A stretch of 64,000 nucleotides of DNA from a bacterium (GTDB lineage Bacteria; UBA8248). Shown here piece after piece: positions 4,677 to 62,846 of this stretch. The stretch lies in the NCBI GenBank assembly GCA_963692865.2, contig OY843592.1, forward strand, positions 384,001 to 448,000. The letters run 5' to 3'. A program made the translations under genes and the position numbers. The notes under the pieces are model-generated. The model was not told where the DNA came from. It saw nothing but the letters and a program-made list of their open reading frames with translations, and searched no databases. The stretch's first letter is position 1; every line of letters starts with the position of its first letter.

Positions 4677-6389
4677 CTAGAAAAGGAAATACCGCTGCGC
4701 CATGGGAAGCGACTCGGCGGGCTCGCAGGCGAGCGTCTCCCCGTCCGCCTTCACCACGTAGGTTTCTGGGTCCACCTCTATCTTCGGCAGGGCGTCGTTC
4801 AGCCGCATGTCCTTCTTGCCGATCCCGCGGCACTTCGAGACGGGCGCGACGATCTTGGTGAGGCCGAGCGACTCGCCCAACCGATCTTCCGCCGCCGCCC
4901 CCGAGACGAAGGCGTAGGAAGTGGGACCGACCGCCCCCCCCATCGAACCGAACATGGGGCGGCCCAGAACGGGCTGGGGCGTGGGGATGGAGGCGTTGGG
5001 GTCGCCCATCGCCGCGTGGGCGATGAAGCCGCCCTTCACCACGACTTCGGGTTTTACGCCGAAAAAGGCGGGCCGCCAGAGCACGAGGTCGGCCACCTTG
5101 CCGACTTCGACCGAGCCGACGTAATCGGAAATGCCGTGCGCGATCGCGGGGTTGATGGTGTACTTGGCCACGTAGCGCCTGGCGCGGTAGTTGTCGTTGG
5201 CGCCGCTTTCCTCAGATAGCGCTCCGCGCTGGCGCTTCATCTTGTCCGCCGTCTGCCAGGTGCGGATGACCACCTCACCCACGCGGCCCATGGCCTGGGA
5301 ATCCGAGCCCATCATGCTGAACGCGCCCATGTCGTGGAGAATGTCCTCCGCCGCGATGGTCTCCGCGCGGATTCTCGACTCGGCGAAGGCCACGTCTTCG
5401 GGAATCTTGGCGTCCAGATGGTGGCAGACCATGAGCATGTCGAGATGCTCGTCCACCGTGTTCACCGTGAAGGGACGCGTGGGATTCGTCGAGGAGGGCA
5501 GCACGCTCGCCTCCCCGCACACGCGGATGATGTCGGGCGCGTGGCCGCCGCCCGCCCCTTCGGTGTGGTAGGTGTGGATGGTGCGGCCCTTGAGCGCGGC
5601 GATGGAGGTCTCGACGAAACCCGATTCGTTGAGCGTGTCGGTGTGGATGCAGACCTGCACGTCCATCTCGTCCGCCACGCCGAGACAGCAGTCGATGGCC
5701 GCGGGCGTGGTTCCCCAGTCCTCATGGAGTTTCAGCCCCACGGCGCCCGCGCGGATCTGCTCGACGAGCGGCTCGGGCCGCGAGGCGTTCCCCTTGCCCA
5801 GGAAGCCCAGGTTCATGGGGTAGGCCTCCGCCGCCTGGAGCATCCGGGCGATGTTCCACGCCCCGGGCGTGCAGGTGGTGGCGTTCGTGCCCGTGGCGGG
5901 GCCGGTTCCCCCGCCGAACATGGTGGTGACGCCCGAGGAGAGCGCCTCGTCTATCTGCTGGGGACAGATGAAGTGGATGTGGGTGTCGATGCCGCCGGCG
6001 GTGAGAATCATCCCCTCGCCCGCCAGGACTTCCGTGGCGGCGCCGATAGTCATGTTCACCCCCTCCATCAGGTGGGGGTTGCCCGACTTGCCGATGCCCG
6101 CGATCTTCCCGTCCCTGACGCCCACGTCCGCCTTCACCACGCCCCAGTGGTCGAGGATCAGCGCGTTGGTGATGAGCAGATCGAGCGCGCCGGCCTCGCG
6201 CGTCTCGGTGGGCGACTGGCCCATGCCGTCCCGGATGACCTTGCCGCCGCCGAATTTCGACTCGTCTCCGTAGACGGTGCGGTCTTCTTCGACCTCGATG
6301 AAGAGTTCGGTGTCCGCGAGGCGCACCCTGTCCCCCACCGTGGGGCCGAACATGTCGGCGTAGGCGCGCCTGTCCATTCGATAGGCCAT
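4677..6389 (-). CDS. ureC: Urease alpha subunit
   Basis: [56 protein letters not shown]. Confidence 0.99.
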
Positions 6390-56696: not shown

Positions 56697-58091
56697 TTAA
56701 TATGGCAATCTAACCGGCGGAGTATCATCGGGAGGATTGAGCGTAGTGTATCTCTCCGGCGCGGTTTTTCTTCGCTTCCCGCCGAATGAGCCTATAACTC
56801 CATGTTTCTCGAATACGCCCGCCACTTCACACGCCTTGCAATCGGCGGTGTTCCCGTAAAAATCCCCGTCGATGTAGCCAAGGGTAGGATGCGGGTTTTG
56901 GTTGTCCGCGTGGTTGCCGTGGCCTTTGTAGAAAAACGATCCGTCGTCGTTTTGCGGGATGTTTTCAAACTTGATGGTTTCCGGCCCCTTATAGAGCGAC
57001 CCGGATATCTCGCTAAATTCCACGTCTACTTGATGATCCTTGAAATCGTAGTTTATCGTCGCCCTGCCGTCGACGTATCCATGAACCGTAAACCCCCCCC
57101 TCTCATAATCGCGCCCGGACATGAAACCATGCCACGTTGCGCCGAGCGCCGCATCCTCCGGCGGTTTTCCTCGGTAGAGATTTCCGAATGCGGCCCCGTG
57201 AGTTTGACTCAAATATTCCCCTTGTTCCCCATATTCAAAGGTTCTAACGTAAAAGACGCTATGTTCGCCCACCCCACCCCAATATGAAATACTTTGATAG
57301 TCACCACCAGATATACTACCAGAAAGAGACGTCATCTCGTAAAATTCGTAACTCGGCTTAACTTCGTCCCGATCTAATATATGAAGAACCACGCCAATCG
57401 AAAAATCTTGTCCACCTACACCGGCAATTTGTGAATAACTCTTATAGTCAACCCCGTCAATCTCAATCCTCTTTACTGTGCATATGTTGCCGTTATGCGC
57501 GAGGCCCGGACAAGTAAGCTTTTGTCGAGCAAGCTCATGTGCGGTTATTTTTCCTTGCTCTGTTCGCATAAACTGGGTGAAACCGTTGCCATAGGTGTTG
57601 ATTTCATCCGTCATTTCAAGGTGGATAACGTCAATATCCACGTTGCTCCCGGCGATTTGATATTTCACCGGCGGGGTTGTTCCTGTAGCCGGCGGCGTTC
57701 CTCCTCCTCCGCCCGTGCCTCCGCCTGTTCCTCCGTCGGTTCCTCCGTCGGTTCCTCCGCCTGTTCCTCCGCCTGTTCCTCCGCCCGTTCCTCCGTCCGT
57801 GCCTCCGCCCGTGCCTCCTCCGCCCGTTCCTCCGCCCGTTCCTCCGTCCGTGCCTCCGCCCGTGCCTCCTCCGCCCGTTCCTCCGCCCGTTCCTCCGTCC
57901 GTGCCTCCGCCCGTGCCTCCGCCCGTGCCTCCGCCCGTGCCTCCGTCTACTATGCCTCCTCCTCCGCCCGTGTTTGCGCTACCGCCGCCTCCGCCGCAGC
58001 CGTAGAGCGCGAGGGCGCAAACCAGCGCGAAAGAGAGCAGCGCCAATGAAAGCGATTTTTTCTTCGAGGGTTGCCTTTCGAGTCGGATCAT
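56697..58091 (-). CDS. Lipoprotein with Gly/Thr-rich linker and TbpB-like C-terminal barrel
   Basis: Lipobox LYGC-GGGGG, about 100 aa of GGGT/DGGT repeats, C-terminal ATWHG..G, IDGDFYG, EVAGVF...GSFGG. Confidence 0.78.
   Translation of the reverse strand: MIRLERQPSKKKSLSLALLSFALVCALALYGCGGGGGSANTGGGGGIVDGGTGGGTGGGTGGGTDGGTGGGTGGGGTGGGTDGGTGGGTGGGGTGGGTDGGTGGGTGGGTGGGTDGGTDGGTGGGTGGGGGTPPATGTTPPVKYQIAGSNVDIDVIHLEMTDEINTYGNGFTQFMRTEQGKITAHELARQKLTCPGLAHNGNICTVKRIEIDGVDYKSYSQIAGVGGQDFSIGVVLHILDRDEVKPSYEFYEMTSLSGSISGGDYQSISYWGGVGEHSVFYVRTFEYGEQGEYLSQTHGAAFGNLYRGKPPEDAALGATWHGFMSGRDYERGGFTVHGYVDGRATINYDFKDHQVDVEFSEISGSLYKGPETIKFENIPQNDDGSFFYKGHGNHADNQNPHPTLGYIDGDFYGNTADCKACEVAGVFEKHGVIGSFGGKRRKTAPERYTTLNPPDDTPPVRLPY
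57700..58000. repeat. Coding 12-bp tandem repeat (CCTCCGCCCGTG/T variants)
   Basis: Encodes GGGT/DGGT units. Confidence 0.9.
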
Positions 58092-58160
58092 TTCTTTCGC
58101 CTCCCCTTCTTAACCGTGAAAATTTCCGTTCTCCGGACCGCGGATGCAGCCGGAGCGTTT

Positions 58161-58276
58161 ACCCGAAAAACCACGAGCAAGAAGAGATGGATTTCCCGCA
58201 GGCTCCGCTCTCCGGGGGATGGAGAGAAGCTTCTGTCCGGCGGGAAGACCGAATCGACCATCGCGGTTCTTGTGGC
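58161..58276 (-). ncRNA. Candidate structured RNA, copy A
   Basis: Long terminal stem with G-U pairs on the minus strand, internal hairpins, AAATCCATCTCTTC motif; TTGACA 30 nt upstream. Confidence 0.5.
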
Positions 58277-58637
58277 AATGAAAATAATTGGATATGCAGG
58301 GTGGAATGTCAAGCGCGCGTGGATGAGCAAAACGGAGAAAGTTTTTTTTGGGGGGCTTGATGTGACATGGCTGTAGATAGAGAGCGGCGGAAAAATATCT
58401 TAAAAAAAAGTCGTTTTTTTGCGCCGAAAAATCCGTTATGGTTGCATCGGGAAGTTGGGAAAATGCGTTTCGTTGTATTGGGTTTCCCGAAGTCGAGTTT
58501 CTTTTTCGCTGAAAGGGGAGGGTGATAATCGAAAAAGCCCCCGGTCGGCGATACGAGTTGAAGATGAATGGGCGGGTCCATCATTCGATGAAATGAAAAA
58601 GGTTGTCCCCGAACCGCAAACGCAGTCCGGGCTGTTT

Positions 58638-58756
58638 GCCACAAAAACCACGATCGAAGAGATGGGTTTCCCGCCTATTCCGGCCTCCAGGAGACTGGAG
58701 GCCGTGTTGTATTCGGCGGGCAGCCCGAAAGGGCCGACTGCCGTGGTTTTTGTGGC
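58638..58756 (-). ncRNA. Candidate structured RNA, copy B
   Basis: 15-bp stem GCCACAAAAACCACG/CGTGGTTTTTGTGGC, internal hairpins, AAACCCATCTCTTC motif; TTGACA 30 nt upstream. Confidence 0.55.
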
Positions 58757-58961
58757 GAGCAAATGATCGGGCATGGAACCCCGTCTTGTCAAACGCGCGT
58801 GGGCGGGCGAAAACGCGAAGAGAAGGGGAGTGCGCCGAAGTCGAGCCTCTTTAGAAGGCGGGGTGAGTTGTGCTAGCCTTGGACCATAGATGCCGTTTTC
58901 CGCGTTGGGTTTTCCGATGCGGTTCAGGTTTTAACAGGCATCACTATTTGGGAGCCGGACG

Positions 58962-60008
58962 ATGTTCAAGAACTTGCGGATACGCAATTTTCGCGCGTTC
59001 GACGATTTGGAGATTCCCCGCCTGGGGCTGGTCAACCTCGTTACGGGAAAGAACAACTCCGGCAAGACGAGCCTGCTCGAAGCGCTTTTCCTGTTGTGCG
59101 GCGCAGGAAATCCCGAGATGGCGTTGCGCATCAATGCGATTCGTGGAATCGACTGGGCGCAAGGTCCAACGGCGCCCGAGACGTTATGGAAGCCGACTTT
59201 CGCTGATTTCGACATGACGAGGACCGTCGAGATTGAGGGAAATTACACGTCATACGGCCCTTTGAGGTTGAGCATCGTGCTCGATCATCCGAATACCATC
59301 CAGCTTCCTTTTGAAATTTCTGACCGTACTTTGGCGGCCGGATTTCCAAACGAAAGCGAGCTCAAGTTTTCGTTCAAAAAAGGATCGGAAAACAGGGTGG
59401 AGAGCCGCATTCGCTTGGCGGGCGAAGGATTTCAGATAGACCCGCCTGTATCTCCTCTGCCGTTTCGGGCCGTGTTGCTTTCGTCTCGTACCGGGAATCT
59501 CAGAGAGGACGCCCAGCGTCTCGGGCAGCTTCGGCAACGAAAACAGGGAGAGCTCGTGGTGAATGCTCTACAAAGCGTCGAACCGAGACTGCAAACCTTG
59601 GAAGTCAATTCCGCGTCCGGCGTTCCCATGATCCGGGGCGATGTCGGCCTGTCGGAACTCGCGCCGCTGCCGATGATGGGTGAAGGCATGACGCGAATCG
59701 CGCGTCTGATTCTGGCGATCTCCGCTGCGCCTAATAGCGTGGTTCTCGTTGACGAAGTGGAAAACGGCCTGCATCACTCTGTATTGGGCAAGGTTTGGAA
59801 AGCGATTGGGGAGGCGGCCAGACAGTTCAACACGCAGGTCGTCGCGTCGACGCACAGTTTCGAGTGCATGGAGGCGGCGCATCAATCCCTCGATGCCGAG
59901 GACTTTCTCGTTCACCGGCTCGAGAACATCGACGGAGCAATACGCTGCGTCACTCTCGGACCCGACGAAATAGAGGCGACGTTCAAACACAATCTCGAGA
60001 TGCGCTAA
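58962..60008 (+). CDS. AAA/ABC-family ATPase (AAA_15/AAA_21-like)
   Basis: IRNFRAF, TGKNNSGKTSLLEAL, MGEGMTR, VDEVENGLHH, STHS. Confidence 0.9.
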   Translation: MFKNLRIRNFRAFDDLEIPRLGLVNLVTGKNNSGKTSLLEALFLLCGAGNPEMALRINAIRGIDWAQGPTAPETLWKPTFADFDMTRTVEIEGNYTSYGPLRLSIVLDHPNTIQLPFEISDRTLAAGFPNESELKFSFKKGSENRVESRIRLAGEGFQIDPPVSPLPFRAVLLSSRTGNLREDAQRLGQLRQRKQGELVVNALQSVEPRLQTLEVNSASGVPMIRGDVGLSELAPLPMMGEGMTRIARLILAISAAPNSVVLVDEVENGLHHSVLGKVWKAIGEAARQFNTQVVASTHSFECMEAAHQSLDAEDFLVHRLENIDGAIRCVTLGPDEIEATFKHNLEMR

Positions 60009-60962: not shown

Positions 60963-61279
60963 CCTTCCCGGTCGCGTTTGACCTTCGGCGGCTATTCAGG
61001 GTGAGGAAAACAAAAAACACCCTTATCCCGAGTAGGGCCGCAAGGCCGTATCGAGGGACGCCGGAAAACAGCCTCCTGCCTGAAAGGCAACCCCCCTGTC
61101 CTCCCCCTTTTCAGGGGGGTAGAAGTAATGCCCATGACGAGGGGCTTTTTTAATGACCTCTCATCGGCCGGGTTCGACCCCCGTTGACACCGCGCACCCC
61201 GCGTGAAAGCATCGGGGAAACATCATCCATCCAGCGGGCGTTCGCCGCCTCCCCCCCCATTCTCGATAAGGAGAAAAAG

Positions 61280-61876
61280 ATGATTCGGCGTATCGGTCGG
61301 TGTGCGGCCGCGGCGTGTCTTGCGGTTTTCGCGGCGCTCGCGTTTTTCCCCCATCAGGCGCAAGCCGCGAATAAGGACGTCGTCTTCATCAAGGCGTTCT
61401 ATCCCCTGGACGAGCCGAGGTTCCACTGCATCGACATTCCCGGGCACCGGGACCGCGTGAGAACCACAGCCGCCCTCCTCGTCCACACCTGCAAGGAGGG
61501 CATCTGGAACCTGGACGAGCAGTTCGACCCCGCCGCCGTGGGGAAGGGCATGCTCCGGATGCCCGAATACGACCTGTGCGTCGCCGCCGCTTCCGCGGCA
61601 GACGGCGCGAAGCTGATGCTGAAAAAATGCGACGGCTCGGCGCTCCAGGACTGGCGCTTTGCGAACTACCGCTTAAGCCTCAAGGCGCATCCCGGCAAAT
61701 GCCTCACCATCGGCCCTGAACCCTCGCGCCTCACGCGGGGCGGGCGCAGGCTGCCGAGCCGCCACATGGCGCGCTCCCTCGCCCTTGAGACGTGCTCCGA
61801 AGACGCGCTCGAAAGACAGCTCTGGCGGCTGGAGAAACCCATGGAGCGCACCGGCTCCATCATGCCGTTCAAGTGA
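61280..61876 (+). CDS. Secreted ricin-B/beta-trefoil-like protein
   Basis: Signal peptide, paired Cys with QxF/QxW motifs (CIDI..HTC, LCV..KCD...QDW, CLT..TC...QLW). Confidence 0.68.
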   Translation: MIRRIGRCAAAACLAVFAALAFFPHQAQAANKDVVFIKAFYPLDEPRFHCIDIPGHRDRVRTTAALLVHTCKEGIWNLDEQFDPAAVGKGMLRMPEYDLCVAAASAADGAKLMLKKCDGSALQDWRFANYRLSLKAHPGKCLTIGPEPSRLTRGGRRLPSRHMARSLALETCSEDALERQLWRLEKPMERTGSIMPFK

Positions 61877-62575: not shown

Positions 62576-62846
62576 GCGTCTTGCGCGTTTCGCCGGGGAA
62601 CCGGACGCCGTGAAGGCGCAATCCCCCGAATCACCGCGCGAAACGGCGTCCTCGAAACTCCCGGACGCATCTCGGGCCGTTCGGCGCACAGTCGATGAGG
62701 GGGAATGGAGGTGGGGCTTCCGCTTTTTCGGCCCCCGGAGGAGCCGCCTCGCGTTCAGCGGAAACCCGTGAAGCAAACTTCCGTGGATTGTATGCCGGGA
62801 ATGATCCTGGGCGATTCGGTTCGAGTTGTCAAGCGGGGATAATGGG

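Follow-up and report, generated by a model that had tools for sequence, protein, structure and literature searches.

What are the two similar units that lie upstream of a lipoprotein gene in the 64,000-nt stretch of DNA analysed here (the window; positions 384,001 to 448,000 of contig OY843592.1, assembly GCA_963692865.2), and what do they do for the gene that follows? The first-pass annotation had described them as two minus-strand copies of a promoter joined to a structured RNA, with TTGACA 30 nt before a long stem, and had proposed a new small RNA, attenuator or C4-like antisense family regulating island genes. Sequence reading, alignment and a promoter scan bear out the description: copy A (58758-58625) and copy B (58278-58148) are both minus-strand units of this kind. 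The features to which the text refers are as follows.

58787..58792, minus strand: -35 hexamer TTGACA of copy A, with the -10 hexamer GATCAT at 58768-58763
58625..58758, minus strand: copy A, a canonical member (109.8 bits, E 6e-22 with the covariance model, a score that is partly by construction because copy A is one of the nine sequences used to build the model)
58756-58742 and 58652-58638, minus strand: P1 arms of copy A, GCCACAAAAACCACG pairing with CGTGGTTTTTGTGGC
58727-58721 and 58634-58628, minus strand: strands of helix S in copy A, CGGGCTG and CAGCCCG
58720-58715 and 58675-58670, minus strand: P3 of copy A, a CCCGCC/GGCGGG-type stem
58714-58705, minus strand: internal loop GAATACAACA of copy A, facing GAATA at 58680-58676
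58704-58681, minus strand: P3a hairpin of copy A, with arms GGCCTCCAG/CTGGAGGCC
58669-58653, minus strand: linker of copy A
58607..58631, minus strand: hairpin 3' of copy A, CCCGGACTGC-GTTT-GCGGTTCGGGG, which shares the 3' strand of S
58307..58312, minus strand: -35 hexamer TTGACA of copy B, with the -10 hexamer AATTAT at 58289-58284
58148..58278, minus strand: copy B, a diverged member (33.4 bits, E 0.00125 genome-wide with the covariance model; copy B was absent from the model-building set, and its score is independent of construction)
58276-58262, minus strand: 5' P1 arm of copy B, GCCACAAGAACCGCG, pairing imperfectly with 58175-58161
58131..58155, minus strand: hairpin 3' of copy B, CTCCGGCTGC-ATCC-GCGGTCCGGAG (81-nt fold, -34.2 kcal/mol, z -4.51)
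58100..58111, minus strand: Shine-Dalgarno-like sequence AAGAAGGGGAGG, 8 nt upstream of the ATG at 58091
56697..58091, minus strand: lipoprotein gene (464 aa), with a lipobox LYGC followed by a long Gly/Thr-rich repeat and a C-terminus that resembles a TbpB-type beta-barrel
62670..62798, minus strand: third, degenerate copy of the family (38.1 bits, E 1.1e-4 with the covariance model)

The two copies and their locus

Copies A and B have a mean column identity of 80% over 237 columns of a pairwise alignment that includes CCACGCGCG(T/C)TTGACA upstream, and their matches to the covariance model are far beyond chance. In both, TTGACA is followed after 17-18 nt by a -10-like hexamer and, about 7 nt further on, by the 5' arm of a 15-bp stem, so that the distance from TTGACA to the long stem is 30 nt in each. 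Both contain the CCCGCC/GGCGGG-type stem, within which the hairpin differs in sequence and keeps its pairing; here the earlier reading was right for copy A (GGCCTCCAG/CTGGAGGCC) and for copy B (CTCTCC/GGAGAG). After this stem comes GGGAAA(C/T)CCATCTCTTC, and then the 3' arm of the long stem. A short hairpin had also been described; it is clear in copy A (GGCCC-UUUC-GGGCU) and missing from the minimum-energy fold of copy B, and across the family its 3' half turns out to be a strand of S.

The core of copy B is altered, with GGACAGAAGC in place of GAAUACAANAC and GCGGAGCCTGCGGG in place of GGAAUAGGCGGG, and by reading of the sequence four of the seven S pairs can form in it. Copy B is the gene-adjacent copy in the window, and its loss of much of the conserved core counts against reading the element as a leader. 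Folded on the minus strand, copy A gives -69.3 kcal/mol (z -6.92 against shuffles) and copy B -47.7 kcal/mol (z -1.75); the corresponding plus-strand z values are -7.78 and 0.15. Because copy A folds equally well on the plus strand, folding energy alone leaves its strand unfixed.

The 464-aa protein has no match in Pfam or NCBIfam. Over residues 318-440 it aligns (30% identity, E 1e-6) with the TbpB_B_D region of a lipoprotein at locus L063, and that lipoprotein itself clears the Pfam cut-off for TbpB_B_D (31.8 against 26 bits). From these similarities a TbpB-like surface lipoprotein is a plausible identification, short of proof. Thus an intact copy A and a copy B with a diverged core stand in tandem upstream of a TbpB-like lipoprotein gene. 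The order A-(A2)-B-lipoprotein gene, in which A2 is a second A-like copy that is sometimes present, is kept with variable spacing in three other species of the genus; the core at the B position is canonical at locus L148 and diverged in the window's genome and at locus L128. A U-rich run begins 6 nt past the hairpin downstream of copy A, and the terminator caller makes no call there. Since no U tract adjoins this hairpin in the orthologues of copy A, transcription from the A promoter may, as far as sequence can indicate, pass through copy B into the lipoprotein gene. The third copy in the window has its own TTGACA (62832-62827) and GATCAT.

A multi-copy family in several phyla

Nine canonical copies were gathered from the window's own genome by BLAST with copy A and by a motif regular expression, and they form the basis of the covariance model R1. 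In that genome R1 gives 16 matches, nine of them at 91-125 bits. Within the same genus 20 of 22 genomes are positive, with 1-17 copies each; 24 of the 61 genomes searched are positive when the window's genome is counted, and a search of the GTDB phylum (51 genomes) returns the same 24. With one genome taken for each species, a search for the exact pattern found 39 loci, the record titles of which are mostly Nitrospinota, Nitrospinaceae or 'bacterium', the others being Terriglobia, Vicinamibacterales, Parvibaculaceae and Alphaproteobacteria. Loci titled Terriglobia, Vicinamibacterales and Parvibaculaceae give full-length R1 matches of 68-89 bits, and the Alphaproteobacteria locus (L088) gives weak ones of 21-31 bits. 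Five genomes bearing these four titles carry 3-7 copies each. In wider samples R1 is positive in four of 150 further genomes from the phylum of genome G070 and in six of 150 from the class of genome G068. The sparse positives in these samples, together with the several phyla represented, indicate a distribution that is patchy yet phylum-spanning.

The exact pattern found ten loci in a metagenome collection, a count that is uninformative on abundance because the pattern is far narrower than R1, which recovers copies that it misses. One genome (G002) contains eight matches of exactly 101 nt, a truncated variant; the three that were compared are embedded in a repeat that is 1.2-1.3 kb long or longer, and the ORF adjoining the truncated repeat has no Pfam family. 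No description of the RNA family was found in a search of the main texts of open-access literature.

Fold, covariation and strand

RNAalifold applied to the nine copies from the window's genome predicts 30 pairs, of which 17 show compensatory changes. For a wider view, the 91 R1 matches (89 distinct sequences) were aligned to R1. In the 89 distinct sequences 95.9% of the cells in the model helices pair and 28 of the 29 pairs of the model have changed at both positions, values to be read with the fact that this alignment is fitted to the R1 helices, S excepted. Covarying pairs make up 16 of 16 in P1, six of six in P3 and four of four in the P3a hairpin that caps it. None of 500 shuffle controls attains the observed values, and sliding the partner columns by 1-3 lowers pairing to 34-44%; the rows are related to one another as orthologues and paralogues, and these shuffle controls accordingly overstate significance. 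The first-pass annotation had asked for covariation in homologues, and a model search of related genomes thus yields it in abundance.

Outside R1 there is a further helix of 7 bp, S, in which CGGGYYG immediately 5' of P3 pairs with CRRCCCG located 3 nt past P1. In S 95.0% of the cells pair. Pair 44:181 is CG in 51 sequences, UA in 31, UG in six and unpaired in none, and pair 43:182 is CG in 36, UG in 29, UA in 11 and unpaired in 12; variants from other phyla read GGGCUU:AAGCCC, GGGUUG:CAGCCC and UGGGUG:CGCCCA. Since S crosses P1, the fold is formally a pseudoknot. By reasoning from this fold, S, P3 and P1 could all come together at a single junction, and the 5' end of the RNA would lie there. 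P3 contains a near-symmetric GAAUA/GAAUA internal loop and a CAANAC bulge, and its P3a cap is variable. The unpaired elements GAAUACAA.AC, GRAAUA and GGGAACCC are near-invariant throughout the family, including the copies from other phyla.

Two further helices were noted in the alignment. A GGG:CCC helix predicted by RNAalifold (columns 40-42 with 138-140) hardly varies: two of its pairs each show a single both-sided change, and each pair has 4-7 cells that do not pair. Through this helix the S 5' strand may have a second possible partner. The register of a local P2 hairpin varies between subfamilies. The linker after P3 is constant neither in length nor in sequence among family members, and the conserved AAAYCCATCTCTTC that the first reading had singled out therefore holds within the sub-lineage of copies A and B and not beyond it.

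Across the family there are 301 G-U cells against 40 A-C cells, and from this excess the transcribed strand is the minus strand of the window, as had been argued earlier from the G-U pairs of the two copies.

Coupling to a promoter

A scan of the minus strand for promoters returns exactly the sites of copies A and B, each with 10 of 12 matches, compared with 0.2 +/- 0.6 sites in shuffled sequence. The same layout recurs throughout the family. Under a criterion of at most four mismatches in 12, a sigma-70-like promoter is present in 81 of 90 copies with 4-11 nt between the end of its -10 and the first P1 pair, and this gap is 7 nt in 50 of them; at random genome positions the scan gives such a promoter in 114 of 5000. 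TTGACA is perfect in 59 of the 90, and copies from other phyla have the same promoter layout. This register places the predicted 5' end of the transcript at the 5' end of P1, that is, near 58756 for copy A and near 58276 for copy B.

Relation to known RNA families

At gathering score, Rfam 15 gives no match to the RNA family anywhere in the window, where the sole match is 5_ureB_sRNA at another place; the earlier reading, which recognized no known riboswitch in the motif, agrees with this. With E values up to 10 the only relevant match in 57900-59000 is sRNA-Xcc1 (RF02221), which reaches 19.5 bits on copy A against a gathering score of 53. The match is not peculiar to copy A. Five different copies are hit by sRNA-Xcc1 below threshold, at 37.6 (L088), 33.0, 29.5, 27.9 and 19.5 bits, and in the 4.15-Mb genome of the window the top three matches of the sRNA-Xcc1 model (23.5, 19.7 and 19.5 bits) are all copies of the family.

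sRNA-Xcc1, from Xanthomonas campestris, is 88 nt long and has been mapped by experiment (PMC2996969). It is among the structures of Rfam 15 revised with R-scape, according to PMC11701678, and bioRxiv 10.1101/2025.06.18.660453 reports it upstream of symE in integron cassettes; from this location, Xcc1 too may act as a leader. The two RNAs share a GC-rich closing helix (S in the present family) abutting a stem with an AAUACAA.AC / GGAAU internal loop, and these are the parts that the Rfam model aligns. In contrast, the second hairpin of Xcc1 is absent here; in its place are the linker and P1's 3' arm, whose partner lies upstream of S, so that the helices cross. Furthermore, the Xcc1 model closes with CCCuuuu right after S, whereas no U tract follows S in the present family, and the hosts, copy number and gene context (envelope proteins, not symE) also differ. 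With all scores under the gathering score, no second hairpin, no terminal U tract and an added, crossing P1, the family is a distant structural relative of sRNA-Xcc1 and not a member of it.

Genes downstream of the element

For each copy we took the first downstream ORF that reaches 80 aa, has a ribosome-binding site and starts no more than 150 nt away. Such an ORF follows 41 of the 91 copies, most commonly at a distance of 40-49 nt. By a crude signal-peptide rule 31 of the 41 downstream products pass (27 of 37 distinct N-termini), compared with 662 of 3948 ORFs (16.8%) in the genome background under the same rule. Among 33 downstream proteins Pfam recognizes OMP_b-brl (three proteins), CsgG, TbpB_B_D, Sel1, glycine-zipper/17-kDa antigen, DUF4875 (two) and Glyco_transf_25, and most of the others among the 33 have no Pfam family. 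Four downstream proteins match the NCBIfam model for Slam-dependent surface lipoproteins, all below the cut-off. In other phyla an ORF of at least 60 aa lies within 150 nt of 11 of 24 matches, and seven of these 11 products are signal-peptide-like, two pairs being duplicates.

The remaining 50 of the 91 copies, copy A included, lack an ORF that fits this definition. Some of them stand in tandem arrays and some before long conserved non-coding stretches. A purely cis-acting role leaves these copies unexplained, which weighs against a leader function.

The RNAs thus constitute an uncatalogued, multi-copy, strongly covarying and promoter-coupled family tied to envelope-protein genes. The family stands upstream of genes for cell-surface and outer-membrane proteins and probably controls their expression. 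The fixed spacing to downstream start codons fits a leader (cis-regulatory) role; the 'island genes' of the first-pass annotation were too narrow a description, because the family stands before envelope-protein genes at many loci in several phyla.

The region between the RNA and the start codon

The hairpin that follows the element can draw on the 3' strand of S, and two tests of this arrangement gave different results. A compact hairpin that includes at least six of the seven S 3'-strand bases is present in 32 of 86 distinct copies, compared with 341 of 2580 dinucleotide shuffles, whereas under a lenient definition a downstream hairpin is present in 65 of 86 copies and in 1161 of 1720 shuffles, which is no enrichment. 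A switch based on S is weakly supported by this pair of outcomes, enriched in the strict test and not in the lenient one.

A U-rich tail follows the downstream hairpin in two of 65 cases, and no minus-strand terminator was found in 57900-59100. An attenuator in the intrinsic-terminator sense, as had been suggested earlier, was rejected on these two results. In local folds the Shine-Dalgarno sequence stays largely free of pairing and no platform that would mask it is evident; inspection of a few copies by eye gave no consistent pattern of anti-Shine-Dalgarno pairing. On these results the element is not a classical terminator attenuator. An anti-Shine-Dalgarno role for a conserved AACCCAC linker was also considered; it is complementary at loci L032 and L060 and not at L033, and the idea was dropped.

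Function

A cis-acting, ligand-responsive leader resembling a riboswitch is the function that we consider most likely, with about an even chance of being correct. The proposed unit is a sigma-70-type promoter fused to a structured 5' leader of 120-140 nt. Transcription would start at the first base of P1, within which P3 and its P3a cap would form, and P1, P3 and S would converge on one pseudoknotted junction beside the conserved GGGAACCC. A ligand, either a small molecule or a dedicated protein, would bind at the junction and stabilize S; with S open, its C-rich 3' strand would be free to pair with G-rich sequence immediately 3' of it. The equilibrium between these folds would then set the translation or the stability of an mRNA whose coding sequence begins some 40-50 nt further on, and which would usually encode a secreted, lipoprotein or outer-membrane protein.

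Riboswitches for second messengers, such as c-di-GMP-I (GEMM), can occur in many copies per genome, before genes for surface and secreted proteins. The present family resembles orphan and GEMM-type riboswitches in its complex, promoter-proximal fold with invariant junction nucleotides, in the presence of several copies, some in tandem, per genome, and in downstream genes that are unrelated to one another and serve one cell compartment. A conserved, covarying, aptamer-like fold in a predicted 5' UTR is a generic riboswitch feature that it also possesses. It differs from riboswitches in that no Rfam 15 riboswitch family matches it by sequence or model, and in that neither a canonical terminator nor a platform that sequesters the Shine-Dalgarno sequence was found. 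More specifically, and tentatively, the family may be a new riboswitch class, related to Xcc1 and built on a connectivity-permuted, pseudoknotted three-way junction. It would sense a small molecule (perhaps a second messenger, or a metabolite related to the envelope), and its 3-17 copies per genome would co-ordinate the surface proteome (outer-membrane barrels, TbpB-like lipoproteins and Sel1-repeat proteins) of uncultured bacteria in at least three phyla, including the clade of Nitrospinota-titled metagenome-assembled genomes to which the window belongs.

The leader could instead be a constitutive expression module that senses nothing, its 5' stem-loop guarding the mRNA 5' end and insulating translation initiation, and the whole promoter-plus-stem unit having spread by duplication before highly expressed envelope genes. 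The 5' UTR of ompA is a known case in which a 5'-terminal stem-loop stabilizes the mRNA of an outer-membrane protein and insulates translation initiation, and the likeness extends to a predicted mRNA 5' end buried in a stem and to envelope-protein genes downstream. Such a module would suit a predicted start that coincides with the first base of a 16-bp stem, -35 hexamers at or near consensus, Shine-Dalgarno sequences that are mostly open, terminator-type platforms that are essentially missing, and downstream genes that are mutually unrelated. However, a protective stem has no need of about 40 nucleotides, unpaired or at the junction, that hardly vary from phylum to phylum (GAAUACAA.AC, GRAAUA and GGGAACCC), nor of the covarying long-range helix S, and the core here is far larger than that of ompA, conserved, pseudoknotted and common to several phyla and to unrelated genes. 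We therefore regard a purely constitutive module as unlikely. Stand-alone, trans-acting sRNAs like Xcc1 would account for the copies without a near ORF, such as copy A, which has its own promoter and then a hairpin; the mapping of Xcc1 itself as an sRNA (PMC2996969) and the family copies at the head of the Xcc1 model's matches in the window's genome point the same way. Against this, the rarity of U-rich tails, none of which adjoins the hairpin in the orthologues of copy A, predicts no defined 3' end, the tight gene spacing and strong gene-class bias are those of a leader, and the conserved unpaired stretches are short loop segments. A trans-acting role is quite improbable on this balance.

Two other readings have very little probability. 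Multiple intergenic copies with inverted termini of 15-18 bp, and the truncated variant inside a longer repeat in G002, are what a DNA-level repeat without RNA function (a MITE with terminal inverted repeats, or a REP-like element) would show; but the termini vary and yet stay complementary, all 16 P1 pairs having changed on both sides, whereas ends bound by a transposase would keep their sequence. Strand-specific G-U pairing and the fixed register to promoters and start codons also disagree with such a repeat, which makes it a very remote candidate. The C4-like antisense pairing with a GAAGAG-ATG-G start region, proposed in the first-pass annotation, arose from the complement of CCATCTCTTC, which reads GAAGAGATGG in copies A and B. 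This segment belongs to the non-conserved linker of the family, no C4 family of Rfam is matched in 57900-59000 with E up to 10 or in the window at gathering score, and no plus-strand gene start lies opposite; the proposal is accordingly abandoned as having almost no likelihood.

Implications

Returning to the leader, which remains our preferred reading, a well-defined, strongly covarying RNA with a fixed predicted transcription start flags a regulon of secreted and outer-membrane proteins from unculturable lineages, whose Sel1-repeat and TbpB-like surface proteins probably mediate contact with the environment or a host. The comparison also places sRNA-Xcc1, hitherto regarded as trans-acting and specific to Xanthomonas, within a wider structural family, of which it would be one branch and which may act in cis. 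If the element is merely a stabilizing leader, it is still a portable promoter-plus-leader module common to several phyla. If the RNA binds a ligand, it would represent a new class of sensor, and the element of about 135 nt is directly testable in vitro.

Additional features of the window

The window holds a third, degenerate copy of the promoter-coupled leader RNA family, scoring 38 bits with the family covariance model. It is preceded by its own promoter (TTGACA and GATCAT), and an ORF begins where it ends (62670-62188), which encodes an Arg-rich product and is unconvincing as a gene. The features recognized are as follows.

Features of the window
5945-6225, plus strand: 5_ureB_sRNA (RF02514), Rfam, 101.4 bits
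about 57700-58000, minus strand: long, near-perfect tandem DNA repeat of GGCACGGGCGGAGGA-like units, within the lipoprotein gene
58962-60008, plus strand: AAA_15/AAA_21 ATPase, Pfam (AbiEii-type family according to the Pfam description)
61184-61876, plus strand: ricin-type beta-trefoil lectin domain protein
62670-62798, minus strand: third, degenerate family copy

The 5_ureB_sRNA is the sole match in the window at the Rfam gathering score, and because of it position 5945-6225 is implied to be a urease ureB region. The ATPase gene is divergent from family copy A (58758-58625, minus strand), and the lectin-domain protein lies beyond it. Within the lipoprotein gene, the tandem repeat units encode the Gly/Thr-rich linker that follows the lipobox; the GC skew there is -0.285, and the number of units may vary between strains.

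Variant forms of the family

One subfamily, represented by locus L034 of the same genome (G000:C1:562300-571500) and its orthologues L064-L070, L124, L130, L134 and L145, is not followed by an ORF. Instead, a non-coding stretch exceeding 400 nt and conserved in part lies 3' of these copies; it contains a second copy of GGATTGTATGGG, which resembles the 3' arm of the 16-bp terminal stem P1, together with a small, conserved inverted repeat, TGACC...GGTCA. A long inverted repeat based on CTCATTA...TAATGAG is present in most of the eleven members.

A truncated, 101-nt variant without the 5' arm of P1 was found in three other genomes: eight matches of exactly this length are located on contig G002:C1 (e.g. 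1031221-1031321), two on G013:C2 and one on G016:C5. This variant is embedded in a longer repeat, and the four copies compared (three of the eight from G002:C1, L170-L172, and one of the two from G013:C2, L173) show 94-96% identity over approximately 1.2-1.3 kb. The adjoining 321-aa ORF matched no Pfam family. The repeat may be a mobile element that has captured part of the leader.

A further observation concerns loci L088 and L135. At L088, in a genome recorded as Alphaproteobacteria, three short copies without the long P1 are arranged in tandem. These copies are followed by a His- and Cys-rich secreted peptide of 58 aa, and a similar 47-aa peptide is encoded downstream of a family copy in genome G022.

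Relation to sRNA-Xcc1

These short forms are the family copies nearest to the Rfam model of sRNA-Xcc1 (37.6 bits). In the most widespread integron cassette of Xanthomonas, according to a preprint (10.1101/2025.06.18.660453), symE lies downstream of sRNA-Xcc1 in the same orientation. This position, taken with the present leader family, suggests that sRNA-Xcc1, too, may function as a leader in addition to being an sRNA.
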